Positions 13,041-59,032 of a stretch of DNA of 64,000 nucleotides are shown here, piece by piece. A program made the position numbers and the translations under genes. Numbering within the stretch: the stretch's first letter is position 1; the number at the start of each line of letters is the position of its first letter. The stretch comes from Schmidtea nova. Its lineage: Eukaryota. The stretch covers positions 449,252,001-449,316,000 of the forward strand of contig CM097882.1 of assembly GCA_044892505.1 (NCBI GenBank). Direction: 5' to 3'. The notes beneath the pieces are model-generated. The model saw only the letters and a list, made by a program, of their open reading frames with translations, did no database searches and was not told where the DNA came from.

Positions 13041-13258
13041 CCCTTTCCTATCTTCTTTATTTTATGTGTCCCACCCGTTCCAATCCTAATAAAATTTCAA
13101 AAAAAATTTTTTTAGTTCGCTCTATAAACAGTTGGTCATAATATAATCGACAGTGCATTGGAAATAAACTATTCAAAAATAATGTCATTTTTTTACAGAC
13201 AGAGGATAGAATGGTTAATTTTTTTGTCATATTTTTATAGACACAGGATAGGAAAGGG
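13041..13258. mobile_element. piggyBac-type MITE
   Basis: ttaa|ccctttcctatc ... gataggaaaggg|ttaa: perfect 12-bp TIR with TTAA TSD. Confidence 0.85.
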
Positions 13259-20299: not shown

Positions 20300-21800
20300 A
20301 TTTTGATGTTCCAATGTAGATGTAGTAAAGAGAGAACGAAGGGTTTGGCCGGGGAGGTTAAACCCGGTGTAGAATAAATCGAGTCGAGAATTTCGATAAA
20401 GGTGTCCCTTCACAATATGGAAAAATCAAGAAAATTAGATCTGGTACCGAGGGAGAGCTCACTGGTTGATTATCGCAGAATCCAATTATTCCCAAAAATT
20501 CGCCAAGTTATTAATTATCGTCAAAGATGTGAAGTGGCGCCTTCAATAAGTCATATATTGGAGATACATTCTTCAATCGTAATTTCAAGAGCTCGGATTG
20601 ACATTAGTCACTTCCATCCGACCCCTTCGAGAGAGCTAGGAGTGGAAGATGAGACTATTTTCCACTACCGCCTTACGCGAAATACCTATTTCAGAGGAAC
20701 TACAAATACGACGTATATTTGTGTGGAGCTCCACGCTGAGCATTGACTGATGGAATAAATCAAATAAATGTATTGTGTGATAATTCGTTTCATTTCATTG
20801 ATAAATCGAACTTAAGTTTTAAGCATTAGAGAGTGACGATGACATTTGTCAGCATTCATTATTAACACCACAATAAAATTGGAAATTTGAATAAATAATA
20901 ATAATTTTAATAGTATCATAACTAGCCAAATGAACCGTGACGCCAAACAAGAATCCCAAAAAATCCAGCGGGAACTGAAAGGGAGATATGCGATTTGAGA
21001 GCCCAGATCCGAAGGCTCGCTGCAGAAAACCAACAACTCAGTCGGAGCGCGTTCACTCCGGAACAAATGAAGGCATAAATCACGTGCACGGCACTAGCCA
21101 AAAGGGCAATGGCAGGATTGCAGCTCGAGCCCGACACAACCAGAAACGAATTGCGGAAATGTCAGCTCGGTCACCCGGTCGTTTATCGAGACAGAGTTAT
21201 GAGCGTGTATTAAGCCAATCACCATACAACTATGGACAGATAGTGCGGCGACCACCTGTTCCGTGGGAACCGGTATAAACAATATGCTCGAGAAGGAATC
21301 CAGTGCTGAAAACAAGCACGAAGGGATAACTTTCCATCAAACAAAATCACAAACGCAAATGGATTGGAGCCAGCAGCGGCGGCAGAAGAAACTGTTTACC
21401 CAACAATTAAAGACCCAAATCGACCGTTTGAATGATTTGACTGAATTAGAGTTATTAGTGGAAGTGATCCACTGTGTTCAGAAACAAATGAAATTTAATG
21501 CACAATAAATATATTTTCTAGCGTTCGGGTTGTGTTAAATAAAATATTAAATGGTATAACTGACAATAGGGTTACAATTACTAAAAAAATAAGTAAACCT
21601 TCTGACATATCAAGAATTAATGAAAAGTCAGGAAATGGAGGGTGTTGTCACAAATCGGCGAACAGATACATGCGTAAGATTTTCTAACGGCCATCGGAAC
21701 CCGGTGAAGATGGTTTAGGGGAGAGTAGTCCTTGTAAATGGGCTCATCTGTTCCCTAGCCGCTCACCCCCGTACACATCACCAACATGGTTGTATGGTGA
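20300..21800 (+). mobile_element. Uncharacterised multi-ORF repeat, copy A (decayed ORF-Y and ORF-X)
   Basis: Translated remnants SHFHPTPSREL, QIRRIFVWSSTL, AFTPEQMKA, TRNELRKC and QQRRQKKLFTQQLKTQIDRLNDLTELELL match copies B and C. Shared 3' box gaacccg..aggggagagt|agt..gctcacc. Confidence 0.65.
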
Positions 21801-22258
21801 ATGACCATGAGTGTACGAGTGAGACAGATGCTTATTTATGTTGAGGTGATAGTCGCATCCATCCTTTAGGTAATTTTTAAGAGAATATCGATAACCACAC
21901 CAGACCAACAATTTGAAAAAAGTATACCTAATAATTCAGTTGTTTTTTAGCTTCAAATTGTTTTCTTCTGTCTTTTTTTAGCGTCTTATTAGTGAAAAGT
22001 TATTAAAAGAAATACGCTTTATTTTAATTGTTGTGGACAAATAATGAATTTTAAAAAGGGTATTATTATTAAAATACGATATTATTAATAGCTTAAATTT
22101 TTTGTATCTGCTGTTAATATTAGTGTGGATATTACATATTAATTATAGGTTTGACGATTCGTTTGTATATTTAATTATAAGTTGTACTTTTCACTTTTCA
22201 AATCGATTTTGTGTTAACGCTGTACGGATATCGTTTGAAAACATATATATCTTATTAA

Positions 22259-22499
22259 CCCTTTCAATACTGTAGGGACATATTGTCCCAGAGAATTTCT
22301 AATAATTACTAACTGTGTTTTTATATGTGCTGTGCTCGGAATTGCCAAGTAAGCTATTTATAATTTTATTTTACTTATTTAGTGTGCAGCAATATTTTTT
22401 ATGAATTTTTTTATTTCCCGTCAAACTAAATTATCAATAAATATTTTGTGCTATAAATACTACATGAATTATTATAATATAAAAATCGTATTGAAAGAG
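22259..22499. mobile_element. piggyBac-type MITE
   Basis: ttaa|ccctttcaatac ... gtattgaaagag|ttaa (11/12 TIR). Confidence 0.8.
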
Positions 22500-22519
22500 T
22501 TAAACGAACAATAATTGTA

Positions 22520-22930
22520 TATATGTATATTTATTTATCTGTAAATTTTTTCTCGAAAACGGCATTATAATTTTTTCGGAAAATTGGCATACTATCATTT
22601 TCCGGTGTGAAAAAACGATCTAGATAGTGGAAAATTTTGTTTAGGGCCTTAATTTTGGAAAAACATTTTTCCTCTTTTATAATGGGATGTTGTACGTAGT
22701 ATTTTCCCGTGTTGAACGGCAAAATAGCTTGAAAGTAAATGAACGTCACACGCATAATGTTGTGTGGAAAGAAGCATTGAACGCTCCTGATGAAAGTTCT
22801 ATGTCTTGATAGTGACAGGGACGAAGGTTAACATCGATTTTTATGTCTCAGCCGAATAGAATAAAAGTTGTTTCGCGAAAGAGATTCAAAAACTGTCCTT
22901 CTTTTCAGCGAGCGAAGCTCGGTACCCTGG
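22520..22930 (+). mobile_element. Non-autonomous Helitron-like element
   Basis: 3' end gcgagcgaagctcggtacc-CTGG|t (hairpin plus CTRR before T). The 5' part contains ttttctcgaaaacggc. The 5' boundary is approximate. Confidence 0.5.
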
Positions 22931-23408
22931 TAATATTTATTTAAATTTATAAAAAAATTAATTTTTTAATTAAAATTAATAAAAAATGAATTCAATAAAA
23001 TTAAAAAAGTTACAGCACGGTGAGACGCAAGTACTTACTTTCCAACTTATTTGACGAAAATTTAATCAACGCACAACTGACAATATCTAGTTTAAAAGAC
23101 CTCAGTTAATTTGCCACTTTTATTTAACAAGTGCGCTTCACACTTATATTTAAAAAACTAACGTGTTAAAGCCACAGTAGACTGCATTTATTTGATATTC
23201 AAAATATGTTAAAATACAAAGACAAACAAACACATTGAAAATGTTGAAAGACAAATTTATTCAGACGAAAAATTTCCGAATACAATTTCATACAGAAAAA
23301 TACAGTGTTAATACAATAGAAACTCGTTTTGTATGAATAGAATTTTAAAACTCGGGAATTGTGTATGTTGTGAGAGAGAGAGAGAGAGACAACTTAGCTG
23401 CCAGGAGT

Positions 23409-26400
23409 CTATGACGTTCGACAACATGATAAAATAAATCTAGCTTTCCTACTCATATTGGAACCGGCACGAATGAACGGGTTAGTGTTAGTGAATCCAG
23501 TCACCGATTTCCCGGTGGTATTATTGCTATTGTTGTTATTCGAGTAGTCGATGTGATCTGCCGAGTGCCGATGACCGCTAATTTTGCCGCCGTTTTTAGA
23601 ATCGACACCAACAGCTCTCGATTTCATATTCGCTGCTGCCAACAACGATTCCTCTCTGTTCTTCTTGCCCACCAAAAGCGATTCGGAATCGTCTGGAGAA
23701 TGCAGCGATTTATTCCCGATCGGCAAACTCGTCACCGATGCGTACTCGCACCGGCTTTCCCTGCCACTCACGGTCGCTGAGGCACTCACGACACCGCCGT
23801 CAGACCGATAGCGATCATTACCCGAGTAATAGTTCGATCTCGTCGAGTCGGTTTTGATTTTATTCGCCATGCATTGCAGCTCAAATGCTCCCCGGACGAG
23901 ATTCATCATGGCTTTCGAGTCTCGCAGGCTGCTAGCGAATGAGCTGAGACTGAAATTTGATTGGGTTAATTGACTGGATAAACTGTGGCTGTTTAATTTG
24001 TGTGCCGATTGCAGCGGGACGGTGATCGGGGCGTTGGCTTGTCGCTTGGTACTGCTGCTGGTGGCGACAAAGCTGCGGTTGATTATCCCACCGCCGGTAA
24101 TTGGCATCCATTTTGATGGCGTACCGTCGGCGGATTCTGATTTGCGCCGGCAGTCAACCGAAACGCTTCGATACGAACCCCTTCCTGTTCCTCCTACGAA
24201 TCCTCCTCCTCCTCCGCCGCAGACGACGTTATCGAGACTTGTTTCTTTATCAATATAACTGCGGGATCGAATCAGCTCTTCCTCTTCGTGGATTGGTGCG
24301 CAAATGTCGCGATGCATTGTCATGCTGGCAACGGTTGGACTGCTTGCTAAGGGACCGTTGCTAACCTGTGAGGAGCTGGCGTTGTCATTCCCATAGTCAT
24401 TGTCGTTATTGTGGGTGTTATTGCCTCCAATCGGGATCTGCTCCTCGGATATTATCTGGGACGACACCCCGCCGCACATTATCGATTGGAAATCATCAAA
24501 AGGAGTGCCCATCGTTGCTCCCATTGAACTCGGTCTACTCCTACCGGATTTGATTCTCAAGCGACGATTGGTAGAACAGAAAAGCTTAGGCCCACTGCCC
24601 AATGTTCCAGCGGTCCCGGTACTGGTTGCAAACGAGCCGTCACTGTCGATGGAACTGTTGGACATCATTAATTCCGGCGTGTGAGGCTTTAGGTTGACAA
24701 ATTTCGAATAGAAATGTTTATTGCTGCTGTTGTTGTTATTATTGCTGAATGATTTGGGAACCGCGACGAATTTCCGTTCACTGAAACCGCGCAAAATCGA
24801 CAGCTCGTTGTCGGACAGATCGCTACTCGAATGGCTATGAGAGAGAGTGCTGTTGCCGCAGCTGACGGCGGCAGTGGATAGATTGAACAATGCCGGATAG
24901 CTGCAGCGTTTCTTTGACGTGTGGCCGGTGGCTTGAATCGCTGGAACGTGCGCGCTCGGCAATGAGACCCGATGTTTCGTTAGATAATAGAAATTGTCAT
25001 CCGATGAAATGGAGTTCGTTCGTCGATTGAACTGCGCTGAGAAATTGCGCTGGAATCTGGGAATGATTGAGAGCTTGTTGGATGAGGATTTCTGTGGCGA
25101 TATTGCATGGCTGGGAGCCGGTCGGCAATTGCTGTTGTTCTCTTCGTGGATGTTGTTGAGCAGTTGACTGAAGCTGGGGATCGATGACAACGAATGGCTG
25201 GAGTAGATCAATGAACGCCGGTTGTAAATTGCTGACCGGCAGCGATTTCTAGTGGTGAATTGTTGGCGGAAGGTAGAAAATCGAGAGTTGTTATTCAATT
25301 CAGATTCCGGAGTTTCTTGGTCGATTGAATCACTCAAACGCGAACAACAGCGACTGGGAAATGGCGCTGAGATGCCCGATTGTGATGAGACTTCGAATTT
25401 CGGAACTGTCAATTCGAGTTCTTCTCTCACTGACGCCAACGAAATCATAGCGTCGAGCTCTTCTTCTTCGGCTTCATCTTCTTCATCTTCGAGGATCATA
25501 CTAAACCGACGAATTCGATCTTCATTCGTTTCGGTAATCGGAGAAATGTTTGTCTGCTTTTGAAGAGCACTCGGAGACAAATTGACCAGAGCTTCCTCGT
25601 CAATTTCCTGACTCGACTGCAACAAAATCGTTTCTTTTTCCATTTCGAGTAATTTCATTTTGCAATAATTCTCGAAATATCTTCGCTTCAATTTCCGTTC
25701 AGCCAATAGGAAATACGTTGCACTGATGTATGAATATTCATTCCGATCGAGTATCGATTGGATTTCCTCAACAGAAGCCAAGTTTCCTTCACTCATTTTC
25801 GTGAGAATTTCCACGTGTTCTTCGACAGTTAAATGCTCCTGACTGATGAGTGGAACAGAAAACGAATCCAAAACATAATTGCTTTCGTTTTCATATTCCA
25901 ACCATTTATCCAATAGGATTTCTTCTAAGCAAGACCGGTTTTCCGGTTCTCTGACTAGCATTTTTTTGATGAGATTTTTACACGAATCCGATAAATGCAA
26001 TGGTAATTCATATTTACAATCCATGATTTTAGAAAGCGTTTCACTATCGTTAGCTTCCTCAAACGGTAAATGACCACAAACGAGCATATATAAAATCACT
26101 CCAAGTGACCAAATGTCGACTTTTGGAGCATCGTATGCGTCACCGAGCAAAATTTCCGGTGCCGAATACGCCAAAGAACCACAAGAGGTATCGAGAGTTT
26201 TACCGGGCACAAATTTATTACTAAATCCAAAATCTGTTAGTTTTACCAGTTCGACTTTTTCAAAGAAAACCACATTTTCCGGTTTTAAATCCCGATGTAC
26301 GACATGGAGATTGTGACAATAGGCAATTGCTTGTACAATTTGTCGGAAATATCGTTTGGCTTTTATTTCTGGAAGTCCGTTTTCAAATTTCATAATATAA

Positions 26401-26732
26401 TCATAGAGATCTCCCCCATCACCGAGCTCCAATATTAAATATAATTTTGTCGATGTATCTATGACTTCATACAATCTCACAACATTTGGATGCTGGACTA
26501 ATTTCATACACATCACTTCGGAAAATAAATGCTCTCGGGATTGGATGTCTAATTTTGTTTTGTCTATAACTTTTATTGCCACTTTTTCACCGGTAAATGC
26601 ATGTTTTGCTTCTTTGACTACAGCATAATGACCTTTACCTATTGTACTACCAATATTATAAAGTCCAGCTATTTTATCATTATCGGAATTCATAATCGAT
26701 TTTTTGATGCATGAAAAACTATTTAGGTCCAT
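23409..26732 (-). CDS. SNRK: SNF-related serine/threonine kinase (AMPK-related family) with UBA domain and a long Ser-rich tail; coding sequence intronless
   Basis: [100 protein letters not shown] are SNRK-diagnostic. The activation-loop Thr (LKB1 site) is present, followed by the UBA-like [13 protein letters not shown]...[16 protein letters not shown]. Confidence 0.97.
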
Positions 26733-29489
26733 TCAATCTAAAACCACGTTATTCAAAAATAAATTTATCAGTTTTATAAAGTAATAGAAAATTAAATATT
26801 ATACCTTAAAAAGTTAAATAAATATACAGATAAATATTTTAATCAAATTAAAAAATAATATCAAATTTATAAAAGTTTTCATATATTTAAACAATTTAAA
26901 TGTAGCAGAATTAAGGATTACAATTTTGAAAAAAAATATTAATCTTTATTTTTCTCTCAGTTTTTGATAAATAAAGTCAAATATTAACGTTTTAAAATAA
27001 AACCAATTTATAAATTTAGAGGCTAAAGCTTTTGATCTTCATTTTCAATAATAGAACTCATTTTTACACTTTTGCAGACAGAACTTTTATGAAAATCTAC
27101 GAGAAATACGATTTGTGTTTTTACATTATTTGCTTAAACTTTGGCGTTATTACAAATTTATTATTAATTATTTGCTTTCTTAAGAGCTAGGCAATTTATA
27201 GTGGTGGTTACTGGTAGTCAACAAAATATAAAACTATAACACTTTGGATCTTCGTTTATTACAATAATAAACCTCATATTTTCATTTGCCACTTTAAACT
27301 CGTTGCTAAGCAACTATGCCACTGTAAATATTTATGGGTTGTTGACAGTCAATATGACTTTGACTGTTACTTTGGCCACTGGTGGGTTGTTGACCGTCAA
27401 TCTTATACTGATATTATACAATTTGATGTAAATAAATTCAAAACTATAAATAAAATATTCATATGCGTCTTTGAATACTATATCGCACTTCAAAAAAATG
27501 TAATAGGATCCTAGACGTTAATTATTTTGAACAGACCTTGTGTTTGGCCAACCCACTACTCCTCATATAGCCAGATATGAGATGAAGCGTTTTTGGATGT
27601 TTGCACTCACTTCGATGAAAAAAATGGATCAGAACACTGGAAGGATTCCAGCGAACTGATGATTTACCAAAGCGACTAATGACGGTAAAACGACTAGGTT
27701 GACCATCATCAGACGTATGGAAGTAGTTTTAATGAGACAAAATATAAATATGCATATAAATAAATAAATGGATAATAATATAATGATGTTAATTTTTGAG
27801 AAAAAGTGGCCAAAGTAAAAATTTAAAAAAATTAAATATAAAATTATAATTTTCCAAAAGTGATAAATACACATTTAACCATATAAATAATACATTATTA
27901 ATATTCGAATGAAATTGAAAATCAAACAAAATACCAACGGCAGGGTAACAAAGGCATGATTTTGCTAGCCTGTATAACATAAAATTCATGATCCTTAGAT
28001 AATCAAATGGCTTCTCCGCTTGATTCTGATGCTACTTCTGGAAATCTTTCGAGGGGTTCGCATTCCGAAAATTCTCTCAAACGATTTTAAGCAAAGTTTT
28101 CTCTTAAAATTTTACCCTTAAAAACGTTTCAAAATTTTTAACAACAAAATTCCGGAATATTCAGAGCAAATTCTGATAGCTTCCATTATGATGGCGGTAT
28201 ATATAGTTGCTCAAATTGTTATTTTCGTTGATGCATTAGAACAAATTGTTCTAGAAGGAATTTTTGATTCTTTCGAAATTAGTTTTAATAATTTTACTCA
28301 AAATTGAATTATTATTTTTGCATACAATTTTAAATAAACCTTAAATAATTTATTTTTGATCTAAAATTTTATTTTTAAATCAAAGTTTTTCCGAATTTAA
28401 TTAATTTATCATAATTTTTAACTAAAACAATTTTCTTTCAAATTTTTTGAATTTTTACACTAAAAATCAAAAATGTTCTTCAGAAAAGATGTTAATTTTT
28501 TCTAGTGTGTTATATTATTACACAATTGATGTTTTTATGATATATATATATATAGGTTTTTCATGTGTATATTTAATGCGCTTTTGTTCATTTTAATTTT
28601 TAAATGTATTATATTTAATTATTTATGTGTTTTGTTATTACTGTGTTTTACTTAGTGTTTTACCTCATGAAATTTTAAATATACTTCTTGCGCGTTGGAG
28701 CATCTGAATTTGCTTCTGCACATTGGCAGTTTTCTCTGCATTGGTCCACGAAGCCACGAAAAATATCATAAAATCCAGAAATCTAAGTAATTTTGATGGT
28801 CTTGAAACTGCAATAGCTGCTGATAATGACAAAATATCTACATCTGATTGTAACGGGTATTTTTCTCATATGAGACAATTTGTTGTAAAAGGATTATTAA
28901 GAGAAAAGTTCTAATCATTGTAAATATCATTAAAATATGTTTCTTTATAGTTTTATTTAATCTTACATTTACACACACATATATAGTTTTAATATCTATA
29001 CTATAAAGTGAAATATCTTACTTTAAAGTAATTACATTATATTAAACTATTATTTATTTATTTGAGATAGTTATTTTTTTATTTAAGATAAATATTTATT
29101 TAACTGAAAAACCCTATAAATAAATATATCAAAATCTTTACTACTACATTATAAATAAATTGATGTTGAATTAATTATTATTAATATATTTAATAAAGAT
29201 TAGTGAATAATATCAATAAATCTTTGTTTATTTTGTTGTTTTAATTATTTTTTAACAAAGGCCTAATAAAAAGAAGTGTTCGAATTTCCAAATTTAACGA
29301 TATCAATTTAGATTTTAAATAGCTCTAATTATTTCAAAAGTGACCTTAACTTCATCGGTAATTAAAATTTACTTATTTTAAAGTTTTTTCGCACTGATTT
29401 TGATTAATTTCAATTCTGGATACACTTGATAAACGTCTGATAAATACATTTAAGTTTTTAAGATTTTTCTTGATGAATTAATTTAGACA

Positions 29490-29675
29490 ATGTCGATAAC
29501 CATACATTATGATAAATGCGAACTGGAGCTGATTGACTCCAAAAATATTGTTACGGATTTTGAAGGCGAGATAGAAAATAAGCAGATTTGCATTAAAATT
29601 TCTAATAAGCCTAATGTTGTGTGGTTGAAATGGAAAGGAAAAGTAAATGGATTGGCATGTATTGGGTGTGAATTA
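29490..29675 (+). CDS. Candidate first coding exon of an unidentified gene, divergent from SNRK
   Basis: ATG-started 62-codon frame with globular-looking composition (MSITIHYDKCELEL...WLKWKGKVNGLACIGCEL) ending at a perfect tta|GTAAGT donor. Downstream exons not resolved. Confidence 0.4.
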
Positions 29676-30685
29676 GTAAGTTTATTCCTTTTATTCGATG
29701 GATAATTAAGATATTATTATGTCGACACTTGCTCCGTAATTACTATTAAAATTAAGTCAATTTTTTAATTATAGAAAATATTTTTAGAATGTTTCAGTTA
29801 GCTGCATTAATTATATGTTAAATCCATTTATAATTGTCCATCTTTAGAGAAATGAATTTCTATAAAACATCACACTTTTACTAAAGGAGATTCATTGGCT
29901 TATAAATGTTATTGTTAATCGCTTCTATTCCACGGTTATTATTTTCAATTTAATAGAGCCGAACTTCGTCATTGGGAAATATATTTTGGTTCTGAATTAA
30001 GAAAATAACTCATTTGTAATAAATTCAAAGGAAGAATTTAAATTTTCGACTCCTAAAGTAAATTCCAGGTTCCGTTTTGAATTTCTAAAACTTGAAAATT
30101 TGCATTTTTTAATTATAACTTTTGAATTTTGTTGATTGTACTCATCCTTGATTAGTTGAATCTTTCGACCTCAGCAGATTTTTATACTTCTCCATCGTCG
30201 CTGTTGCCCTTAATATGTTGGTTCTTAATCGTCTTTTGCTTGAATTAAATTACCTAATTCTTTATCACTTATTTAAAAAAACATCCAACTAATTTTTTAG
30301 TTAATAAGATTTTATATTGCTTCATGTACATATGATATTCACAATTAATTGAATTTAAGAACTTAAAAATAATAATTATTATAAAATGGTGGTTTCCAGG
30401 TGCAAATATTAAAACATAAATAACAAAGTAAGCTAAGTATTATTGAGTAACAATTTTCAAATAATAATCGTAGATGCCACCTAATAAAACTTAATAAAGT
30501 TATTTATTTTTTAATATTATTATTATTTGATGAATTAATTTGTTTCTTGGATATTTTTTGGTAATTGGTATCTTTAGATACTTAAATTCCCTTAATATTT
30601 TCCTTTTTACTTTTACATACGTAAATCTAAAAAATAAGCATATATATTTATCATAATGGGTAATATTCATTTATGCATAATATTA

Positions 30686-31320
30686 CCGTAGATACTCAAG
30701 TATACCGTGAGGTTTTTGTGATACAAAATTAGATAAAAACTTGTGGATCGCGTTTTATTCGCGTTATTCTGTGAATGAATGTAACCTCAACTCCTAAACG
30801 TTTTTACAGTTTTATTTCTACGGTGTCTCGAATATAATTGGATCCACAAGTTTTATCTAATTTTGTGTCACAAAAACCTCGCGGTATACTCGAGTATCTA
30901 CGGCAGGGTTTCTTAAACTATGGGTCGCGACCTCAAATGGGGTCGCTTAGCAAAATCCCGGGGTCTCGATATTTTAATGTAAAATATTTAAAAACCCGAA
31001 TTTATAAAATCTAGATTAGTATTTGTGACAAAATTTTTATTTGTTATTACAAAAAATGCAATTTTGATGAAAAACAGGGCATATAATTTTTGTAACTATA
31101 GTAAATACAGTTTTACAACTTTTTGTGAAATTTTTAATTTTTGTATGTTTTTAAACAAATAGTAAAACTATTTTTTCATATGTATGTATATTGTTACATA
31201 ATCAATAAATCATCACATAATATTAATATCTTTCTTTTATATTTATATGGGGTCGCTAAAAAACTCACCATCATAAATGGGGTCGTGAATGAATAAAGTT
31301 TAAGCAGCCCTGATCTACGG
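30686..31320. mobile_element. Tc1/mariner-type MITE with long TIRs, hosting a hAT MITE
   Basis: ta|ccgtagatactcaagtataccgtgaggtttttgtgatacaaaattagataaaaacttgtggatc and its near-perfect reverse complement (30841-30903 and 31313-31320)|ta. Confidence 0.8.
30904..31312. mobile_element. hAT-Charlie MITE
   Basis: TIRs cagggtttcttaaact / agtttaagcagccctg, ggggtcgc subterminal repeats and a perfect 8-bp TSD atctacgg. Confidence 0.92.
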
Positions 31321-31399
31321 TAATACAGATTAAGGTTAGGGTTAGGGGTTTGCGCAATGAACTTTCTGAACTTAATAATAATTCTGAACTTTCTTTTGG

Positions 31400-31863
31400 A
31401 AATAACTGTTTCATCAATTTAAAACATTAATTCAAAATATTTGTCATTTATAAATAAATTTTCCAAATCCTACTTGTATTCCATCAGAAGATACATTATT
31501 GTTCGCCGGAAAATTGTCAGAAAGACTATAGTTTGCAAAAAGATTAAAAAATATTGAAATTGCACCACTTTTTGAAAATCAAAGTATTCAGACATCATTG
31601 TCACTACAAGAAGAATTGGATATTTTGCTGCAAAAGGAAAAACGATGAATTCAAATGACTAAAACAAGAATTTATATTATTTAGAAATACTAGCAAAAGA
31701 ACTGAAAATTTGTTCGAGGCATTTCTTACAATTAAACCGACATCTATAGACGTTGACCGCGTATTTTCGATATCAACAAAATTTTGTACTAAGATTCGTT
31801 CACGCCTACCTGATGAATATCTTAATTCCTCGGTGTTCCTGAAATTTCATTATAATAAATAAT
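31400..31863 (+). pseudogene. hAT transposase C-terminal remnant
   Basis: LTIKPTSIDVDRVFSISTKFCTKIRSRLPDEYLNSSVFLKFH (hAT dimerisation domain), the same family as the copies at 47.5 kb and 54.6 kb. Confidence 0.8.
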
Positions 31864-31930
31864 AGCTATTGAATTTCGGAAGTTGTATAGAAATTATAGT
31901 TTGAAATAGAAATATTTATTTTTATATTAG

Positions 31931-32503
31931 TGTTGGGGTTGTTATAAAAATCATAAAAGTAAGGAAAATAATATTAAAAGCAAAAAATACCAAGATAAAT
32001 AAAAGTGCAAAAATTAATTAAAATTTATCAACAATTTAAAATTACAATTCATTGGGGAAATGGGTATGGTTAAACGCCAAATAAAAAGACGAATTCAATA
32101 ATAATAATTAAAATTTAGTAAGGGGTCCCTAGAGAAAGCTGTATTGAAAAAACAAATTAATTAAAATTAATTAATCGATCAATTGGAAGCCTGAGACAAT
32201 GGAAAACCCGTGCGCATTAGAGACCCGGAAGATAAAAGGTGGGCGATTGCGTGAACCAATTAGGATAAAATCCCCCAGAGCGTTAGTGGGAGATGAACAG
32301 CGTAATTTGTTGTATGGACAATTAGGCCAGAGATTCTCAATTTGCTGTTGACCCAGATTTCGAAAATTACCTTCCGATAAACATATAAAAAGGGAGCTAA
32401 AAAGAAAAGGACTGCCAGTTGGTCAAATTGAGAAAACTTAAAAATATTATTGTCCGAGAGAAACTCAAAATATTACTACAAGTAGTCGAAAAGAATAAAA
32501 TTG

Positions 32504-32548
<45 letters not shown>

Positions 32549-32650
32549 TATTAATAAACCCGTTGATTTCGAATTCGAATAAAAACACTGCTTGTTCAGG
32601 GTTTCAATATCTATTAATCAACCTACTACCTTAAGCACTAAGAGAATCAC
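31931..32650 (+). mobile_element. LTR-like repeat, family 2
   Basis: Starts TGTTGGGG like the reverse complement of the 43173 end and has TATAAAAGGG near 32384. The 3' end is approximate. Confidence 0.5.
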
Positions 32651-33099
32651 TGAAGTGAAGACTCAAATTATTCAGTTATAACCAGAAATCTATTTTTATG
32701 AATTTTATAGAAATCTCGTTTATCTGAAGGTATACCGAAAGTTAGTAATAAGGAAAAACTCACTAGAGAAGCTTGCGATCTACTTCATTAACCAACGAAA
32801 CTAATGTTAATCGAAATGTGTAACCTGGTATTCAATGAAAATCTTGTCTATTTTATAAAATCCAAATTCGTAAAACTTCCATCTTAACACTTGATAGAAT
32901 TCAGTTAATTTTATTAATTTTTTTACTTGATTTAGAAATGTTGTTCAAAAATTCGAGAAAATTTAATTTGTAGTGTTATTTTTTAAAAATTAAGTATTAA
33001 AAACCCTATTTTAAAAATTTAAGATATTTTAGTTATTTTGGGTACATCACAAAACCTAATATGAAATTTAATACTAAAAGCTTAACTATATTGTTGTTG

Positions 33100-36000
33100 G
33101 TGTATTGGCGATTGAATTTATTTTTGTTAGTCAGTTGGCTAGGGAAATTGGATGTTTACACCAACACAAAAAATGAATTATCGCCGCTATGGTAGCCCTA
33201 GAATTCCCTAGAACTATCCCACGTTAGTACTGTACCATACTGTGTATATCAAGCGAGCAGGTGAGCGGCTGAGGTGGTCACTACCCTCACTTTCATATAC
33301 TCGGGTTCACGGTCGATAGAAGACCTGATTATTTCTATCCCGATTGTCCCCTTTTATCTAGTCGAAAAATGTTGCTTGAATTCCTTTGTACGTCGTAATT
33401 AATTAAAAATGAAAGCCAAGTCAATTGACAACATTCACTGAACACAAATATTGGAATTAATAGTTTTTAATAGCTGATCTTCGGACAGACCACTGAGCCA
33501 ATCCACTTGTATCGCAATCTTCTTAGCATATGCACGTCGTTCTCTGCGTCGCCTTGCTCCCATGCGGTTCCTACTTTTGGTATTCGTGCTCATTGGTGTG
33601 TCTCGTGGGGCAGACTCCGTTCGGCTAATCATCGTTAATTCGGTGACTATGGGAGCGTCCGTTTGTGCCTCTTCCCGCCGGTGTTTGGCAGATCCACTTC
33701 TCTAAGGTTATCGGATGAATCTGGACCCGCAGATGTTCCGCTATGTAGACTGAGCGTAGGCACGCCTTCAGTTCGCATCTCACGGCCGCGAGCTCAGCTG
33801 TCTGCTCATCTATAATACCCTGCATGCGTTCGATCTTTTGAAACTGGGCACGCATTTGCGAAGGAGAAAAATATTTCTTCTAAAGTAGATCGGCTTCCAG
33901 GACTTGTTTCGCTAATTTTCCCTCGAGTATTCGATTTTCTCGTTGTAATAGTTTAACTAATTGGTGGAGCTTAGAATTGGCCTTCGCGAATAATTCCATT
34001 CCTAATAAACAACAACAATTCTCATGATAACCGTAGCGCCAGTTATTAGGGGCTTCGTAATCCTTCTACAAACTCGGTCTTTCGTGTATCCCGTGCCTGG
34101 CTTGGTGACACTAGGTTTTCAACCTCTTAACCGGAAGATTCATTAGCCAAGGGTATCCCTCACTCCATACCCTTGGGATTCTAATTTATATTATGTAATA
34201 CTCGTTACCCGATGATTGAATCAAAGTATTATTTCTCCCCTCATGCTACTTGATTTATAACAACGCACAAAAACAGAAACAAAAACAGAACAAAAATAAA
34301 ATGACGAAATAGACACCCAATAATTCTGGTATTAATGATTAAATACAACGACATGATAGTCTGTCATTCCGCTCGTTAGTTTGTTGACTCATAACAAAAA
34401 ATCTGATAAGGTGTGCTTGACTTGACTTGATCACTTGGGGTAATAGGTGTTGAAGAGCAGGAGACCAGCACATTGTGGAGTGGAAGTCGAATATCTTACG
34501 GACCACGATGCTTGCTTGCCATTCGGAGTTTGGATTCCTGTCGAGCTTGAAGGGTAAATGTTTGAAGGCTAGTTCCAGGCCCGTCTTGACACAGTGAGGA
34601 GCGCATAATAGTATGAACTCTAGCTGATTAAGCTCACTAGTTGCAATGGGGTCGAAGTGGATGACCCACTTTGGTATGTTAGAGGTGTCCCGGAGCAGGA
34701 CGAACTAGCTGTATTAACGGTTGAATATTTCCTAAAAGGTAGAAACTGGCCACTGGGGCCCAACTCTACACCATAAGTCCGCGCTGCTATTGAGATTCCA
34801 GATGTTGAATGGCGCTATGGTCTTAAATTCCCTTCGCCAGCGACACATTTGAGCGTTGACGTCACGCCGGACGTCATGAAGAAGCGGTTTTATGAGTCCT
34901 AGAGTTTGGAGCCGGCAGTTGTATTCCACACTTGATTGTCGGTTAATGGAGATTGATTGTTGTCTTGATGTTGATTAAAGTTTCCCTTGCTGATGCATCA
35001 TTTCGTTTTGACAAAACTTTAAACTTAATTAGGTTGAGAATTAATATATTAAATCACAGTTTGGTAGGCTAAACACCGGAAATCGGCGAACGACGAGATT
35101 CCACACATAATAACTGAACTTTGTAATTCATTAAATGATACATAAATCACAGAGGTGTTCATGATGACTCTGACAAGGAATGCGGTGTACTTTAAATCGT
35201 ACCCATTCGTTGCCATTGATATTTAAGCTCGGGGTGTCCTTCGGCCTTTGTAACTATTTAAAAATGATGTGCGTACCTGATGTTCGCCGTCGAGTCGGCC
35301 TTATGAATAGACCTGACCAGGTGAATTTATGTTGGTTATGAGAGAAAATTGCGTTGTAAAATGGCACGAATACTACATAATTTCGATTGAAGTTTTTCTC
35401 GGAATTGGGATGCTTAGGTGCGATATTGTAAATATCTGTCAGAAATCTATACAGTTGCAAATGTCGGTTTGGGTGTTCTTACACGCTCAATTAATGTGAC
35501 GGTAACTGACTGTATGGATAACTAGGTACATCAGAGGTTTATTCTCATAACTATGCGCACACGACTGATTAGTAGCGGTCGATTCTCAGACTAATTATCA
35601 ACAAATACTGGGATGATCGTGGTTGATCTAATCGTTAGTTACTTGAAAAATAGGCTATCTTTGGATACCTCTGTTGGAAAAATATGCCTATAAATTATAA
35701 ATGTGGTACCGAGTCAACACATAACATAATTATCACGTGGAGTAAACAGATTTTTGGGTCCCTAGGCTTGGTTACAATATTCAAATTTATGAAAATATTT
35801 CGCCTGCCATGGACGCTTTTGGGTTGGCTACCAATTGTGAGTGTTCAAATTGAATGAAAATTTTGATCAACCACCATTTAACCCTTTGACTACAATTATC
35901 CGTGTCGGGTACTATGGGTTATGCTTTAGTCAAAACCGGTTTTGTTGTCCTGTTCGTTGGTCGTTGTTTTCATCGCTGTTCCCAACACATTTAGTATTGA

Positions 36001-36450
36001 CAATGATTGGTATCCTACGTGTACAAAAACGGTTGGATGGCCACGTGTAATTTATGGGGATTCTTCTTGAATAAATGTTTCGACAAAAATGGGGATGCTT
36101 TATATTTCATTAATTAAAAAAAATTTATTATTGAGATTCCCCATTTGCAATTAACTTTTATAATTTCGAAAATGTGTTTGAATACCTATGTGCAATCACC
36201 CCTTCTCTCCCGAATTTGGTTCTATGTCACCGAATCGGCCTATTTCGAAGGATCACGACCGAGAGGCCAGCGACCCTGTGGTCAGAAACCACTAAGGCCC
36301 ATCTTACAGATTTTCCCCTGGGGTATCATGAGGGGTTACTCACAATAGTATATATCAAAACACAAATGTAATATAAAATACCTTTTATTGTTTCACAAAA
36401 TTTGCTGGTAATAAGTACAATGATAACTAAAATTCTGCTCTACATTGATC
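33100..36450 (-). mobile_element. Uncharacterised multi-ORF repeat, copy B
   Basis: ORF-X about 33990-33435 (one stop, one frameshift) and ORF-Y about 34930-34350. The 5' box (36186-36268) is the inverted homologue of 38966-39055. The 3' box is at 33255-33310. Confidence 0.7.
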
Positions 36451-36949
36451 TAAGGATGTATTTATACCAGTTTAGCATTTAATCCAACCAATCAGAATGT
36501 GTCTACCGTCTGTTAAATGTTAATTCTTTTTATTTATATTATCATTAGTATTCTTGAAAATTTATGTTGGTTTGTTATTTTATTAATATATTTCTATTTT
36601 ATTATTGTTTATTCTACTGTTTTCGGTTGGTTTGCTTAGCCATACATTGTATAAAAACGCCCTAAAAAGAATTACGTGAAACGAAGATATTAAAACGATA
36701 TAAAAATAAATTCTGATGATTCTTATTTGTCATGTCTACATCAAGAAATGTTGAAATTCCCATCATAAAATGTGCGAATACAAATAAATAATTTCTATTG
36801 ATAAATTTCATTGCAATATAAATTGAGCAATCAAAAGCCGATATTTGTGAGGGTTGCTGACCTGAATTCTTAAATAAATCACATATAGTACGATTTTTAT
36901 AAACTCCTTAACCAATCTAATAGGGGATTACTGAAAATTTATCTTGGTA

Positions 36950-38226
36950 ATATAATGGAAGATTTTAATGCGAAATTATCATAAAAAGGGGATAAAAGGG
37001 GAATTTAAGATTTCAGAATTGCGCGTAGTTCGGGTAACATCCGTTGCTTAGATACAAAGGCCGTGGAACATCTTTTAAAATTATAAAATTAAATTTTAAT
37101 TTTAAGTTTGCGTTTTTAAATTAAATAACTTAAAATTCTTAATTTTCCTGGAAAATTTTTAAATCAAACTTGATAGCAAAATTTATAAACTAAAAATTTA
37201 CTCCAAGAATCGCGATAACTAAAAGAATACCGCCCAAAATAGAGTTTTATCCAATTTTCATTGATCCCTGCTTGTGGAGCTAGAATCAATCGTTAAAATT
37301 AGGAGTGTAAATTTTAAGCTGACAATTAAATTCTTCAAAATAACTCCTGAGATCCTAAGTTTATTTTCGCCTAGAATTTACCATAGAGCGTAACATAAAA
37401 GTAGCAACAATAAGACAATATTTGAATTCAGGAAATTCCGAGTTAATTCCCATTAAATTTGATGAAGGTTTCTAACCCGAATAAATGTTCCGAATTGGGT
37501 CGGAAAAGAAGATTGTTTTGTGGAAATAATTATAGAATTGTGAGGCTGATGTGGAAAATTACGAACGTGTGAATAAACGAAGAGAAAATTGAATTTTGCG
37601 TGCATATTTTTGAAATTCTAGATGACGGGATCAAGATTGGACGAAATATTTTTGTTATCATTTATTAGACTAATATTCAATATCTCTTTATACTGAAATA
37701 ACAAATCCGCGTGGATTCTGAGAAAAACATTCGACATTCGATTTTTACTTCAAGTTATACCATGATTTAGAGAATCAGAAAGTTAATATGCGGCAAACGG
37801 GTTTGATTACAAAATTTGTTTTGCAAGAAATCTTTTAGCGTTTTCAGTAAGGTAACGCCTAACGATCGAAGGGAATTATAAATTTTGTTTTCTTGGAATT
37901 AAATGTTTGATGACCACAAAAGAGGGGAATCGATAAATGTGTGTAATTAAATTCAATAACCATTTCATATGACGGAAGCGAAAATAGATGAGGTTTTTGA
38001 GGTGCTCAAAGGATGACGGTCCAAAATGTCCGGCGAATGAGTTTCCGCTTATCAGATATGTAAAAAGAGAAAAAGCTCCTGGACAAAATTTAAGGTCATG
38101 ACGATCAGATTGGAAAAATTCAGATCTCAGCCGGTCGATGGAGGCCACCTGACAAACGTAGAAGACACCGAAAAGTTAAAGAAACAAATTCAATTACTAC
38201 GCTCACTGTTTGCGTATGTCTACTCA
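36950..38226 (+). mobile_element. Uncharacterised multi-ORF repeat, partial copy D
   Basis: gaagggaattataaattttg, tttgaggtgctcaaaggatga and IPIKFD match gagggaaataaattttg, tttgggtgctcaagggtga and IPIRSD in copy C (39800-40170). Confidence 0.5.
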
Positions 38227-41200
38227 TGTTAGGCCAGCCAAATAGGACTCACACCGAAAATTAAAGGAAAAAATGAATAAATAAATAAAATTATAAATCC
38301 AAGAACAAGCAGGGGAGGAAAACTTGAAAGAAATAAAATAAAATAATCAAACATGAAATCTATCTGAATAAGCAACACCTGGAACCCACTCTTGATTAAC
38401 CAAACCTAAAGCAGGAATAAACAACAATAAAATATAAATACCAACAGCTGTAGGATTAGAAATCGATTAAAAGTCTGAAATTAACAGAAAATAATACTTG
38501 AAATAAAATAAACTACCAATTAAACTCAGCTATTACCGAACCAGCCTAACGAGTAACACCGAAGGAGATACTAAATAATAATAAATATTAGCATTAAGCA
38601 TCCCACTTTAAAATCCAAACCCGAAATAAATTTATCTAAAATAAGGATTATAAAATAAATATCTGTCAATTATGACAGCGGTAGACGGATTTTGATTGGC
38701 TGAGACCCGGCACGAAAAAGTATATAAGGAGACACGAAATCAGTTGAAGAAGACAAAAAAAATTTTACTTTGAACAAATTTGTTTGACTAGAGTGTACTA
38801 TTTGTAACTGAACTTTGTGCATTAGAATATTTTACTTGGATTCGAGCGATTTATAAAGGTATCAATTTTTATTGTGTTATTATTTATATTGTTTTCTCAT
38901 GCGTTTATATTTTTATAAAAATTATAAGGACACGTCCCGACGGTCTCATGACTCGACGGGCGATAACTGGCCTCCCGACCGACACTCTTCATGGTGCTAG
39001 GTGGTGCGGCGTACGGGCGCCAAACAAAGGGAAGGACAGCGATTGCACATAGGCTAAAGGAATGACTGAGTTTGATTAGGATGACCAGTAGATGTGATGG
39101 GAGTTAACGACCCCACATGTATAGTAGATTCAACTTCGGATAGTTTAATCGATAAGTATGATCACTAACGATAAACCTAAATTCAAGTCAATTTATTTAT
39201 TTTATTAATATCGGTGATTCAACTGATAATTAGAGTACCTAAATATTGAGTAAAGGAATAGTGGACACCATTGAAAGGCGTGTAAATTGGCATAACAGAA
39301 TCCCACGGCAATAAATACCATTCAATCAGAGGGTTACGGGAAATTAGGGTTACTCTACAAACATAGTCGACTTACATCATAAAGGGTAAAGAGAAAAACT
39401 GAACACAATGCATATTTTTTTACGAAAATAAAATTTAGGACATGTTGAAAGGATAGCAGACCCTGTTCGTTTTTATTAACTGTCATTTTCCAAAAGCTTT
39501 AGAAAATTCAACGATTCCATTTATACATCGGGTAGCCAAATATAACAGGAAGGTGGGTGACCAGAGGCCCGTAGAGTAAATGAGTACTCAGCGCGAATCC
39601 AGAGAAAATTCCATGCGCCATAGCAGCCGCTACTTTATCCAAGACGAAAATCCAACATTAAGGAGGGCAATACATTCTGTACGGATAGTTAGGAGACAGC
39701 GAATCAACCTTAGCATTGAACACCGCCACCGAACTGAAGATTTGACCATGTGAAGGATTTTTCTGAATTATTTTCCCAAAGGTAACGATTGAATGTACAG
39801 GCACATCAGCGTCAAAATTTAAACAAATTCCCATTAGGAGCGATCCCAGAGTAGTTAGTCAACATAAAATATTCACGGTTAGAAATTGTCGACGATCGAT
39901 TGTGAGAAATGAATTATAGACTGATATCGAGAAATAATTACACGAGAATATAAGTAGATTACTCTAATTGCTATAACTGTTCTTCCTGACTGAGCTGACA
40001 ACAGCTGTCGAGGGAAATAAATTTTGTTTTCGAGTTAATTCAGGAATGTTGGTGTGGTTGGCCTGTGTATGCCGAACAATGGAATAGAGGAGTTCCGAGG
40101 TCTTGTTTGAATGCGATGATTGGTATGGAGAATGACGACACTGCTTTCAAGTTTGGGTGCTCAAGGGTGAACCTCGTTACAAGGCGTGAATGTAGAATCT
40201 CAGTATTTTTCGCTGTGTTAAATTTTGTTATGTTGTTATGTGTTTTGAAAATCTAATTTAACTTTGAATTCCTTTGTGTGACTTGTTTTATCAATAATCT
40301 GATAGATGAACAAGTGTATGAGAATGTGCGTTAAAATGTATGAAATGGACTTATAATGGTCAGCGTATGATTTTGAGATAAAATTATTAAGCAAGCGGGG
40401 AAAAATAGTGCAGTTACTAATATCGTATAACTTACTTATTTGTGTGATAGTGGTATATAGATCTCACCAAGGTCATAGACACTGACAGTGGGAGGCAACT
40501 AAAACGACGAATGGTAGACTTGATTCAACCGTACCGCAGTAAGAGAGGTCTTGAAGTGCAAAGATAGGGCAACTGGGGCTCTAGAGGAGCAGACTAGGGA
40601 ATTAGAGGCTACGAAACTAGAATTATACCGATGTCTGAGGGAGGTCTCGAACGAATTCATCTTGAAACATCTGAAGGACCAGATCCGTGCGGACACATTT
40701 GAGCGATGGGTCCCGTCGCATAGCAAACCAATGGAAACACAGACAGACGATATACCGCCGATAGCAACGACAGAGATTATTATGGAACCGCCAGTAAGAG
40801 ACCCAATGCCAGTGCCACCGAAATTTAAGAAACGAAATATATTTAGCGTTAAGTGATGCCGTGAATGAAGAGCTTTCGCAAAGCGTATGGGGATTGAGGT
40901 AGACCTGTTAAGTGGGTTGTCCGAGAAACAACTGGTTAACGTCATCTATACTAGCATATTTTTGGGTTGAATAAATGTATTGATTTGTTTTAGTTTTATT
41001 TTATTCTTATGGAATATTGATCTATGTAAAAGTATGATGAATGTGTACGTATGAAGTAAATAATAAAGATGTGACATGTGTTAAACTACTAAGACCTAGT
41101 ATCGGTCGATATGAACCCGTAGATGATAGGGGAATAGTAACTACCTAGGTTGCTCACCTGCCCTATTATTCTACACCACTCAGCACATTACCAATATGGA

Positions 41201-41535
41201 TCGAAATTAGGGGCAAACCATGGGTGCGGGGCGTGGGTAATATTTTTATGTTGGCAGGGTGACCCTAACCATTCCATCCAAGCACAATCGTGTTTAACAT
41301 TAACCAACACACCAGTACCAATTTGTTGCATTTCCAACGTAACATTATAGCGAGCAGCAAGATAGTTAAATGATGTTTTATGTGTTGAATTTTTGATGGG
41401 AGTAACAGTAACGTCAAGGTCATATTGACGGTCAGCAACCCACCATTAATAAAAATTTTCACGGATTTCTCCCCAGGCGATAAAAAAAAATTCAATATTT
41501 CAACACAGCATCCTATAGTAAAATGTACGAACACA
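38227..41535 (+). mobile_element. Uncharacterised multi-ORF repeat, copy C (most complete)
   Basis: Starts TGTTAGG and possibly ends ...GAACACA with flanks ctca/ctta (3/4). A-rich U3-like region, ATTGG and TATATAAG (about 38693, 38722), 5' box, ORF-X about 40500-40970 and a 3' box at 41113-41160. Confidence 0.65.
38690..38745 (+). promoter_or_regulatory. Putative Pol II promoter of copy C
   Basis: Inverted CCAAT (gattggc), TATATAAGG, and an Inr-like TCAGTT about 10 nt after the TATA element. Confidence 0.45.
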
Positions 41536-53116: not shown

Positions 53117-53119
53117 TTT

Positions 53120-56582: not shown

Positions 56583-56589
56583 TCATTTT

Positions 56590-58128: not shown

Positions 58129-58191
<63 letters not shown>

Positions 58192-59030: not shown

Positions 59031-59032
59031 AC

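Follow-up and report, generated by a model that had tools for sequence, protein, structure and literature searches.

Giant LTR retrotransposons of planarians are among the closest described parallels to the locus analysed here. According to the passages of PMC6431247 on Burro/GYPSM1, these Schmidtea mediterranea elements exceed 30 kb, with internal regions of up to 25 kb and accessory ORFs, and the published sizes imply multi-kb LTRs; the same passages assign extra domains either to the polyprotein or to an upstream accessory ORF, with no mention of ORFs within the LTRs. Cestode LTR elements such as ta-TRIM and lennie, in the sections of PMC4558846 describing them, have mostly 4-bp target-site duplications (TSDs) and solo LTRs that retain promoter activity, with internal transcripts. 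A protein ORF inside an LTR is known from the vertebrate retrovirus MMTV, whose U3 holds Sag/Naf upstream of the main promoter and whose Rev-like factor Rem offers a precedent for an accessory regulator (PMC9412291, sections on these genes). Two Repbase planarian transposons, GLT and GLT2, served as probes in Table S1 of PMC8532177; by eye, the GLT2 probe contains an AT-rich intron-like stretch that ends in TTTAG and leads into an open frame of coiled-coil-like character, and in the GLT probe an ATG-started frame comes after a CCAAT box.

In a window of 64,000 nt from Schmidtea nova (contig CM097882.1, forward-strand positions 449,252,001 to 449,316,000), three units, A, B and C, are genuine homologous copies that have deeply diverged. 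We consider it likely that each is a solo LTR from a separate subfamily, long diverged from the other two, of an LTR retrotransposon that used an integrase and had giant, gene-carrying LTRs of 2.1-3.6 kb; their putative LTR status is read from their ends only, and the parent, judging by the 4-bp TSD and the repeat content of planarians, was probably Ty3/gypsy-like. A flatworm host is supported by the SNRK search, in which 13 of the 14 named matches come from Platyhelminthes. The flatworm host, implied multi-kb LTRs, accessory ORFs and decayed fragments in Dugesiidae are points of likeness to Burro as described in those passages, and the ORF pieces gave no Pfam match to MATH, BIR, BCL2, ankyrin, Env or dUTPase, domains that a solo LTR would lack anyway. 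TRIMs such as the cestode elements are miniature and non-coding by definition, whereas the LTRs here measure 2-3.6 kb and hold constrained ORFs, and A, B and C do not show the two direct LTRs around an internal region that define TRIMs and LARDs. Unlike the MMTV ORF, those described here lie downstream of a promoter-like block. GLT and GLT2 resemble the units in their small non-pol ORFs and similar layout, a by-eye lead from partial probes; compared by hand, their frames show weak similarity only to the ORFs here, and for one primer of each (two primers in all) the window holds 0 matches with up to 3 mismatches. Possibly the family is already in the catalogues, among Burro LTRs or as GLT/GLT2; our literature search found no description of ORF-bearing planarian LTRs, though Grohme 2018 or Repbase Reports may contain one.

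Solo LTRs are usually taken as non-coding promoter relics. The boundaries of these units are as follows. Copy A (19765..21910, + strand, 2146 bp, TGTTGG...CCAACA) is flanked by the TSD ATTT at 19761-19764 and 21911-21914, and copy B (33095..36646, - strand, 3552 bp, TGTATGG...CCAACA) by the 4-bp TSD ACAA in the element sense. Copy C (38227..41309, + strand, ~3.1 kb, TGTTAGG...CCAACA) has a start set by homology, with alternative starts at 38150 and 38380 and an alternative end at 41320; no clear TSD was found at 38227, and CACC fits only the starts 38150 or 38380. An earlier note on this DNA had recognised the copies but drawn some borders differently: A starts at 19765 rather than 20300, B starts at 36646, and C ends near 41309-41320. 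All three begin with TG and finish with CA, with a short inverted match of 3-6 bp (6 bp in A, where 8 of the first 10 positions agree). TG...CA termini with a 4-bp TSD indicate a DDE integrase. For A, whose ends were picked by eye ahead of the scan, the TSD together with the 6-bp inverted terminus was reached by a fraction of 0.003 of shuffles (n=300); for B, a TSD with a 3-bp terminal match is frequent by chance (0.71 of shuffles). With the ends fixed, agreement of two flanking 4-mers has a chance probability of p 0.009, and agreement in at least two of three copies p ~0.0003.

The 5' ends of A and B are also reciprocal best matches over their first 40 nt: the start of A ranks best among 1551 positions for B, and the start of B best among 1651 positions for A. 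From the hairpin described below to the end, the distance is 168 in A, 171 in B and 157 or 168 in C. GC is uniform within the copies (38-40%, against 26-28% in the flanks) and falls just past the right ends, from 0.43 to 0.23 in A and from 0.39 to 0.18 in B. The copies, all broken by decay, lie within 22 kb in both orientations, and their flanks are unrelated. Neither paired direct repeats nor long TIRs were found for them within the window: the first and last 300 nt of each unit gave direct-repeat scores of 20-24, reached by 26-88 of 100 shuffles, and inverted end-versus-end scores of 18-21, the shuffle level. The window holds no pair of such units around a PBS, gag-pol and PPT, and no pol remnant adjoins a copy. 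In both readings of A, B and C, neither a PBS-like TGG after the ends nor a purine tract before them was found, as expected if the units are solo LTRs. Of the options raised in the earlier note, that of ORF-bearing giant LTRs is thus the one favoured by the homologous TG...CA termini, the 4-bp TSDs in two of three copies and the unpaired state of the units.

Within these boundaries, ORF-X is common to all three copies, as had been proposed. It survives in A as ~190 codons with stops and frame changes and an AATAAA at its stop (20930..21508, +); in B as ~187 codons with 1 stop and a single change of frame, where an acceptor-like TTTATTAG lies 2 nt ahead of the ATG and no AATAAA comes directly past the ORF (33438..33999, -); and in C as 148 codons in one frame with 2 stops and an AATAAA at 40970, its N-terminal part not being alignable (40524..40970, +). 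Frameshift-aware scoring gave 194 for B-C and 96 for A-B, where shuffles (12 for each pair) reached at most 43; taken on its own, A-C was not significant (42 versus 42 in shuffles). Leave-one-copy-out HMMs, whose columns derive from the alignment of all copies, recovered A at E=1.2e-5, B at 1e-14 and C at 1.6e-19 among 642 six-frame chunks. In an alignment of B and C made on DNA only, identity by codon position was 75/146, 94/148 and 54/147 (p 3e-5), with pS 0.83 and pN 0.37. Synonymous sites are saturated, which indicates that ORF-X was once under purifying selection, in agreement with the earlier suggestion; codon-level constraint acted between the subfamilies and was followed by later decay in each copy.

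ORF-Y was likewise said to be common to A and B. Its remnants (A, 20262..20747, +, 7 stops in 162 codons, with an aligned part at 20385-20738 holding 5 stops in 121 codons; B, 34339..35001, -, 220 codons and 4 stops) align with a score of 77 that 0 of 200 shuffles reached, and pairwise BLASTP gives E 3e-7 at 23% identity. The homology stands, but the HFxPxxxxEL motif offered as its mark does not: in A it lies in another frame, ~55-60 nt out of register, that fails to align to B (E>5), and the likeness is probably chance. ORF-Y was not detected in C by alignment, and an 85-codon stop-free frame there (39999..40256, +) occupies the place of its second half and is not alignable to it. Word-based homologue searches with ORF-Y found no match among 41 candidates of near length or among 734 of longer length, its structure model was unusable (pLDDT 32), and ORF-Y of B gave no ESM Atlas result. 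A further region, D (37000..38226, +), GC-elevated and with an 89-codon low-stop frame at 37963-38229, had been counted as a member sharing an ORF remnant with C. Neither protein nor DNA tests matched it significantly to A, B or C: the C-D protein score of 39 was reached by 144 of 200 shuffles, and the DNA score was 67 against a null maximum of 74. A reading of D as a fourth ORF-X copy was prompted by suggestive motifs and rejected, since its scores are equalled by 26-134 of 200 shuffles.

Upstream of the ORFs, the copies carry A-rich U3-like sequence and candidate control signals. The terminal A-rich unit of A (19765..19915, +) is homologous to that of B (A1-B1 z 3.6, 0 of 200 shuffles), and C has three tandem ~153-nt units at 38227, 38380 and 38533 (38227..38679, +; mutual z 2.6-3.9), with no match to them in the preceding 153 nt. 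A promoter-like block follows in B (36370..36510, -), with CGGTAGAC at 36508, an inverted CCAAT at 36493, TATAAA at 36466, AATAAA at 36389 and a donor-like AAG/GTAT at 36382, and in C (38679..38862, +), with CGGTAGAC at 38679, an inverted CCAAT at 38694, TATATAA at 38721 and AAG/GTAT at 38858. On the strength of these motifs, both blocks are candidate promoters with candidate splice donors. The promoter-like block and TG..CA-like ends ascribed to C are both there, but the block is not C's own, being common to B. A longer region shared by B and C (score 126 versus a null maximum of 119, n=40) includes the 5' box, whose occurrence in both had been claimed correctly: in B (36185..36272, -) it holds TGGCCTC at 36269 and GATTGCACATAGG, with ATTGCACA at 36196, and in C (38968..39054, +) TGGCCTC lies at 38968 and ATTGCACA at 39042. 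Neither the CCAAT/TATA block nor the 5' box was found in A; the former occurs in B and C only, and ORF-X is followed by an AATAAA just in A and C. With the promoter only 150-500 nt from the LTR start, R/U5 would take up 2-3 kb, an atypical length. The order common to the copies is A-rich units, promoter block, 5' box, ORF-Y, ORF-X, AATAAA, hairpin and end. This order has gaps, the promoter and 5' box missing from A and ORF-Y from C.

The 3' box common to A, B and C, also reported in the earlier note, was recovered by leave-one-out nhmmer at E 5.6e-8, 1.5e-10 and 1.4e-12, respectively. In A (21697..21765, +, with GCTCATCTG at 21742) it forms a long hairpin with a conserved internal loop, and the hairpins of B (33245..33308, -) and C (41113..41175, +) hold GCTCACCTG at 33266 and 41152. 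Stability of the hairpin is confined to the ORF strand (z -2.7, -3.4 and -1.5, versus 0.3, 0.1 and -0.8), that of B being only modestly stable. Its outer helix pairs 8/8, 7/8 and 8/8 in the three copies although the bases differ, and support from RNAalifold on the unedited alignment was weak, with 2 of 11 pairs compensatory. The hairpin is not an HDV-like or hammerhead ribozyme, as judged by inspection and by an Rfam search across 19000-43000 (E up to 10), which found no ribozyme and one chance-level match (E 8.8); no tRNA was found.

Against this background, it is unlikely that each unit is complete in itself, as a DNA element that carries genes but is non-autonomous and depends for its mobility on a trans-acting DDE transposase of gypsy-integrase-like type, either Ginger-like or of an unknown kind; the new non-autonomous coding element of the earlier note persists as this minority reading. 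The sections of PMC2836005 on Ginger1 and Ginger2 give them TGT termini, 4-bp TSDs and sizes of 2.6-7 kb, all features like those seen here, and the self-contained promoter-ORF-poly(A) layout fits as well, as does the lack of a parent element or LTR pair within the window. However, those sections describe TIRs of 40-270 bp, whereas the inverted match here is 3-6 bp and the ends align no better than shuffles; the units have no transposase and no RTATAY target, their TSDs are neither CCGG nor CCGT, and a conserved strand-specific RNA hairpin suits an element with an RNA stage. The other option of the earlier note, accessory 3' regions, taken here as truncated pieces of giant gypsy elements (or as inner LTR edges joined to internal region), is very unlikely. 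On this view the purine tract that precedes AGT would be a PPT, and TGGCCTC would be a PBS; a PPT-like purine run does stand ahead of AGT in 3/3 3' boxes, and TGG does occur in the B and C 5' box; spliced accessory ORF3s are, moreover, common in invertebrate LTR elements in the part of PMC5408684 that surveys them. We disfavour it because TG...CA ends and TSDs make A and B closed units, and because no pol remnant adjoins; the purine run is one hairpin arm, and the PBS/PPT reading was rejected since the sequence past the "PPT" is unlike that ahead of the "PBS" in every copy.

A promoter, intron-like signals, a poly(A) signal and purifying selection are what one would see if the units were pseudogenes from a lineage-specific family of host genes that had multiplied by duplication, an origin made highly unlikely by sharp homologous ends with TSDs between unrelated flanks, by the GC contrast, and by three broken copies crowded in both orientations. 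That the units are pieces of a retroelement of the tyrosine-recombinase (DIRS/Ngaro) or Penelope/Terminon-like kind is extremely unlikely: Athena/Terminon elements hold coiled-coil ORFs in the relevant part of PMC5408684, and ORF-X is coiled-coil too, but the Rfam scan found no hammerhead of the kind present in pseudo-LTRs nor any other family, A and B have TG...CA ends with 4-bp TSDs, and the units have no split direct or inverted repeats and no detected tyrosine recombinase.

If the units are solo LTRs, a parent provirus-type element would have been inserted by its own integrase, and LTR-LTR recombination would then have deleted gag-pol, a loss that would explain the absence of RT, integrase and transposase. 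The ORF strand would be the LTR sense strand, placing the ORFs downstream of the promoter in the R/U5 part. ORF-X might be expressed from a short spliced transcript, with a donor ~85-140 nt past the TATA-like box, an acceptor just before the ATG and poly(A) addition after the stop, and the hairpin might act in a longer read-through RNA. The predicted structure of ORF-X (pLDDT 73) consists of a coiled coil, a linker and a helix hairpin made of a basic helix and a Leu-rich helix. A basic helix followed by a Leu-rich helix, alongside an internal-loop RNA hairpin, bears a resemblance to a Rev/Rex/Rem-type factor with its response element. From this model it is possible, though doubtful, that ORF-X is an accessory regulator binding the element's own RNA, perhaps the 3' box hairpin; the fuller scenario, a gypsy-like lineage whose LTR has a spliced two-gene unit downstream of the promoter with ORF-X acting Rev/Rex-like on the hairpin, is a long shot. 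Were it true, every solo LTR would be a self-contained expression cassette regulating full-length elements in trans, and complex-retrovirus-style control would have arisen in an invertebrate retrotransposon.

No homologue or fold match assigns ORF-X a function. The Foldseek comparison proposed in the earlier note returned 0 PDB matches and a best BFVD E of 0.22, and a VIA wide structure search reached a best Z of 5.4 with generic coiled coils over residues 1-71 only, so that it barely tested the C-terminal helix hairpin. The ORF-X profile had 0 matches at E 0.001 among 1.84 billion representatives, and PDB sequence, PHROGs (5 pieces) and phage tblastn searches gave 0 each; Pfam gave DUF6806 below threshold in copy A only (E 3.8e-5, 23.9 bits, cutoff 27) and otherwise coiled-coil noise, and the best ESM Atlas scores for two ORF-X pieces were 0.75 and 0.85, the lead level being 0.9. 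These negatives are weak because the libraries are poor in close planarian relatives: the best SNRK match was only 54% identical, and the collection contained 0 of 4 window proteins.

The LTR here appears to hold protein genes under constraint together with a conserved RNA structure, both kept across subfamilies with saturated synonymous sites. A parent element, if found, would establish an unusual LTR architecture, with a very long transcribed part and accessory genes, and would account for planarian repeats that are coding yet lack an RT, while offering a protein-RNA pair. The presence of three copies within 22 kb points to a large family, which in a stem-cell model could be a source of transcripts and piRNAs. 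A probable fourth, older 3' box, E, lies outside 20300..41535. No ORF-X was detected upstream of it, and protein tests were negative. The hairpin motif has 4 matches in all and 0 in 300 shuffles, a count unfair for E, as the motif was fitted after E had been seen. The box (14786..14885, +) scores E 0.9 with model R1 and nhmmer E 0.009-0.02 with three-copy models.

The earlier note had proposed a multi-ORF family of four copies, and our sequence comparisons bear this out for three of them: A (19765-21910, +), B (36646-33095, -) and C (about 38227-41309, +) form a real family. ORF-X, a decayed frame of about 190 codons near the right end, is common to all three, and each copy was recovered by leave-one-copy-out profiles (E 1.2e-5 for A, 1.6e-19 for C, 1e-14 and 1.7e-11 for B), which gave no match with E <0.25 beyond the omitted copy. 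Frameshift-aware alignment scored 194 for B-C and 96 for A-B against 43 from shuffles, with A-C alone at 42 against 42 from shuffles; all-frame local alignment gave 133 and 116 for B-C, where shuffles reached at most 54, and 72 for A-B, below the 75 from shuffles. The 3' box, a conserved hairpin sequence right of ORF-X, is likewise common to A, B and C, and B and C share the 13-nt 5' box, inside about 500 nt of homology from their left ends (score 126 against a null maximum of 119 in 40 shuffles; second alignment 63.5 against 54 in 20).

Two proposals fared less well. ORF-Y, the frame upstream of ORF-X, had been described in A and B by two motifs; the A frame with RRIF..ST does align to B (77, 0/200 shuffles; pairwise E 3e-7), and alignment to B is absent for A's open frame with HFxP. 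In C, ORF-Y was not detected, its scores being matched by 15 and 31 of 200 shuffles. Region D (37.0-38.2 kb, +) was not supported as a family member, since none of five comparisons, including profile, frameshift-aware, DNA and protein alignments, was significant. D carries sub-significant hints of ORF-X (RENxIL...KYF; I.LEK) at 37402-37653 and 37963-38229 (+), collinear with B and followed by AATAAA and GGAACCC at a spacing like the family's.

TG...CA ends with a 4-bp target-site duplication (TSD) and no internal enzyme are the trace of integrase insertion followed by LTR-LTR recombination. Homology in the tail alignment stops near an ACCAACA motif, and a scan for TG...CA ends with duplications delimited A at 19765-21910, with TGTTGG...CCAACA and ATTT on both flanks (0.003 of 300 shuffles), and B at 36646-33095, with TGTATGG...CCAACA and an ACAA duplication that is weak alone (0.71 of shuffles). 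The left ends agree reciprocally: the first 40 nt of B match A best at 19765 among 1551 positions, the first 40 nt of A match B best at 36646 among 1651, and the first 140-150 nt of the two align (z 3.6). The hairpin lies 168 and 171 nt from the end in A and B, respectively. In C, the left end consists of three tandem versions, of about 153 nt, of the A/B terminal unit, starting at 38227, and the right end falls at 41309 (CCAACA) or 41320; a CACC duplication is compatible with a TG at 38150 or 38380 and incompatible with 38227. By the layout of their sequence, A, B and C behave like solo LTRs, A and B having both the ends and the TSDs.

We therefore regard it as likely that the three copies are leftovers of an element that would have been inserted by integrase and would then have lost its enzyme-coding interior by LTR-LTR recombination. 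In flatworms, the partly available account of the LTR element lennie gives 4-bp TSDs in 63/65 cases and describes solo LTRs as TSD-flanked and transcribed (PMC4558846). The ends of the copies are also Ginger-like, as would suit a DNA element mobilised in trans, but the terminal inverted repeats of 40-270 bp that define Ginger elements in the excerpt consulted (PMC2836005) are absent from them. Alternatively, but improbably, the copies could be truncated internal regions of a larger element, host pseudogenes, or fragments of tyrosine-recombinase (YR) or Penelope-like elements. Paired direct repeats and long inverted repeats were both absent around the copies, and neither a PBS nor a PPT adjoins their ends; a motif scan for pol remnants across the 64 kb gave three isolated matches, none convincing.

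From the left, the solo-LTR-like copies comprise one or more A-rich units, a promoter-like block and the 5' box (B, C), ORF-Y (A, B), ORF-X and the 3' box. The promoter-like block of B and C contains a CGGTAGAC motif, an inverted CCAAT box, a TATA-like box and an AAG|GTAT donor-like site, followed by the 5' box; neither block nor box was detectable in A. The ATG of ORF-X in B has TTTATTAG two bases upstream, AATAAA lies at the ORF-X stop in A and C and not in B, and the 3' box follows 130-190 nt beyond the stop/AATAAA position. The LTR probably has the same sense as its ORFs, given that tandem units come before the promoter and that, past the poly(A) signal of ORF-X, the hairpin is stable on the ORF strand; this would place the ORFs within an unusually long R/U5 part.

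A second promoter-like block at 36890-36950 (-), with GATTGGTT then TATAAAA, lies about 420 nt upstream of that of B, outside the B terminus; 22 nt from the U3 of B recur there, and it is possibly a remnant of another family member. In A, a second frame overlapping ORF-Y (20282-20746, +) is open for 122 codons, where about 7.7 stops are expected, with one stop in 154 codons and an ATG near 20414; the ORF-Y frame there has five stops. This frame, which has no match to B or Pfam, is either chance or an overprinted ORF. Upstream of ORF-Y in B, a low-stop frame (35134-35478, -; one stop in 115 codons) ends in a Cys/His cluster, with no Pfam match and no counterpart found in C.

The 3' box forms a long hairpin, and it does so on the ORF strand alone: folding gave z values of -2.74 (A), -1.48 (B) and -3.39 (C) on that strand, and 0.27, -0.83 and 0.09 on the opposite one. 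With GCTCAYCTG as anchor and loop length chosen copy by copy, inner helix pairs are kept at 5/5, 5/6 and 7/7 positions, the fourth pair differing by copy (C-G, G-C, A-T), and outer helix pairs at 8/8, 7/8 and 8/8 with differing bases. RNAalifold gave a weak result when run on the raw MAFFT alignment, because the register differs between copies, and the box had no Rfam match. Lying past the ORF-X poly(A) signal, the hairpin would be present in read-through RNA only. A weaker fourth 3' box at 14.8 kb (E 0.009) marks a possible old family copy, E (12961-15023, +). An A-rich stretch at 13.4-13.9 kb aligns weakly and collinearly to the U3 of C, and the candidate ends are TGTT...AACA with an AATT duplication, common in shuffles.

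The suggestion that the proteins had been under past purifying selection holds. In a DNA-only alignment, B-C identity in ORF-X was 75/146, 94/148 and 54/147 by codon position (p 3e-5), and protein-guided alignments of ORF-X (B-C, A-B) and ORF-Y (A-B) gave pS of 0.83-0.97 and pN of 0.37-0.54, an effect that protein guidance inflates; the third-position deficit was absent from shifted-frame controls. Synonymous saturation with proteins kept implies that A, B and C come from separate diverged lineages, and each copy decayed individually after these diverged: ORF-X has 0-2 stops per piece plus frame changes, and ORF-Y has stops in 4/220 codons in B and 5/121 in A.

In the predicted structure of ORF-X from C (pLDDT 73), a 51-residue helix and then a short one precede a disordered linker, beyond which lies a helix hairpin into which a basic RRxRR-like stretch runs; fold searches returned generic coiled coils only, and no fold was obtained for ORF-Y. 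Sequence searches with both ORFs were all negative, which says little because the libraries are poor in close host relatives. From shape and charge, we hypothesize that ORF-X may be an RNA-binding accessory regulator, possibly resembling Rev/Rex.

Among known elements, Burro of S. mediterranea is a giant gypsy-like type with accessory ORFs; the available part of its description (PMC6431247) does not mention ORFs inside LTRs. Probes for the Repbase planarian transposons GLT and GLT2, in the part of the source available (PMC8532177), resemble small non-pol ORFs by eye, and one primer of each had no match in the window. A precedent for an LTR-borne ORF is MMTV, whose ORF lies in U3 according to the excerpt consulted (PMC9412291). 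No account of ORF-bearing planarian LTRs was found in the literature searched, in part as excerpts, which comprised sources other than Grohme 2018 and Repbase and included PMC11410931, PMC13238120, PMC10954484, PMC6884822, PMC5408684 and PMC6673714.

The window is AT-rich (GC 30%), and CpG is not depleted. An SNRK-like kinase is encoded at 23409-26732 (-) in a single frame of 1107 codons with a long low-complexity tail; 13 of the 14 named among its 18 matches are from parasitic flatworms, and top identity to any match is 54%. These matches identify the host as a flatworm; that it is a planarian is suggested by composition and repeat content. B lies 6.4 kb upstream of this gene on the same strand, and its promoter could read toward it. 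Weak Pfam matches mark decayed Polinton/Maverick-like remnants at 53100-59400, with EndoVII and DNA polymerase B pieces (+) and double-jelly-roll capsid pieces (-); a hAT fragment at 54571-54909, also a weak match, splits these remnants. Further hAT/BED-finger transposase remnants lie at 49618-49974, 52097-52612 and 62430-63089 (-) and 31695-31853 (+). A separate interspersed repeat of about 1 kb and about 75% identity (15721-16785, 43605-44603, also 54871-54991) has Lys/Glu-rich reading frames without Pfam assignment. At 51342-51584 and 63401-63614, stretches of 116 and 74 nt are duplicated locally without mismatch, either through recent tandem duplication or as an artefact of assembly. A short repeat, GTCA..GTCATATTGAC..GTCA.CAACCCA, occurs as two tandem units at 27326-27411 (-) and as one at 41407-41442 (+), just past the right end of C.
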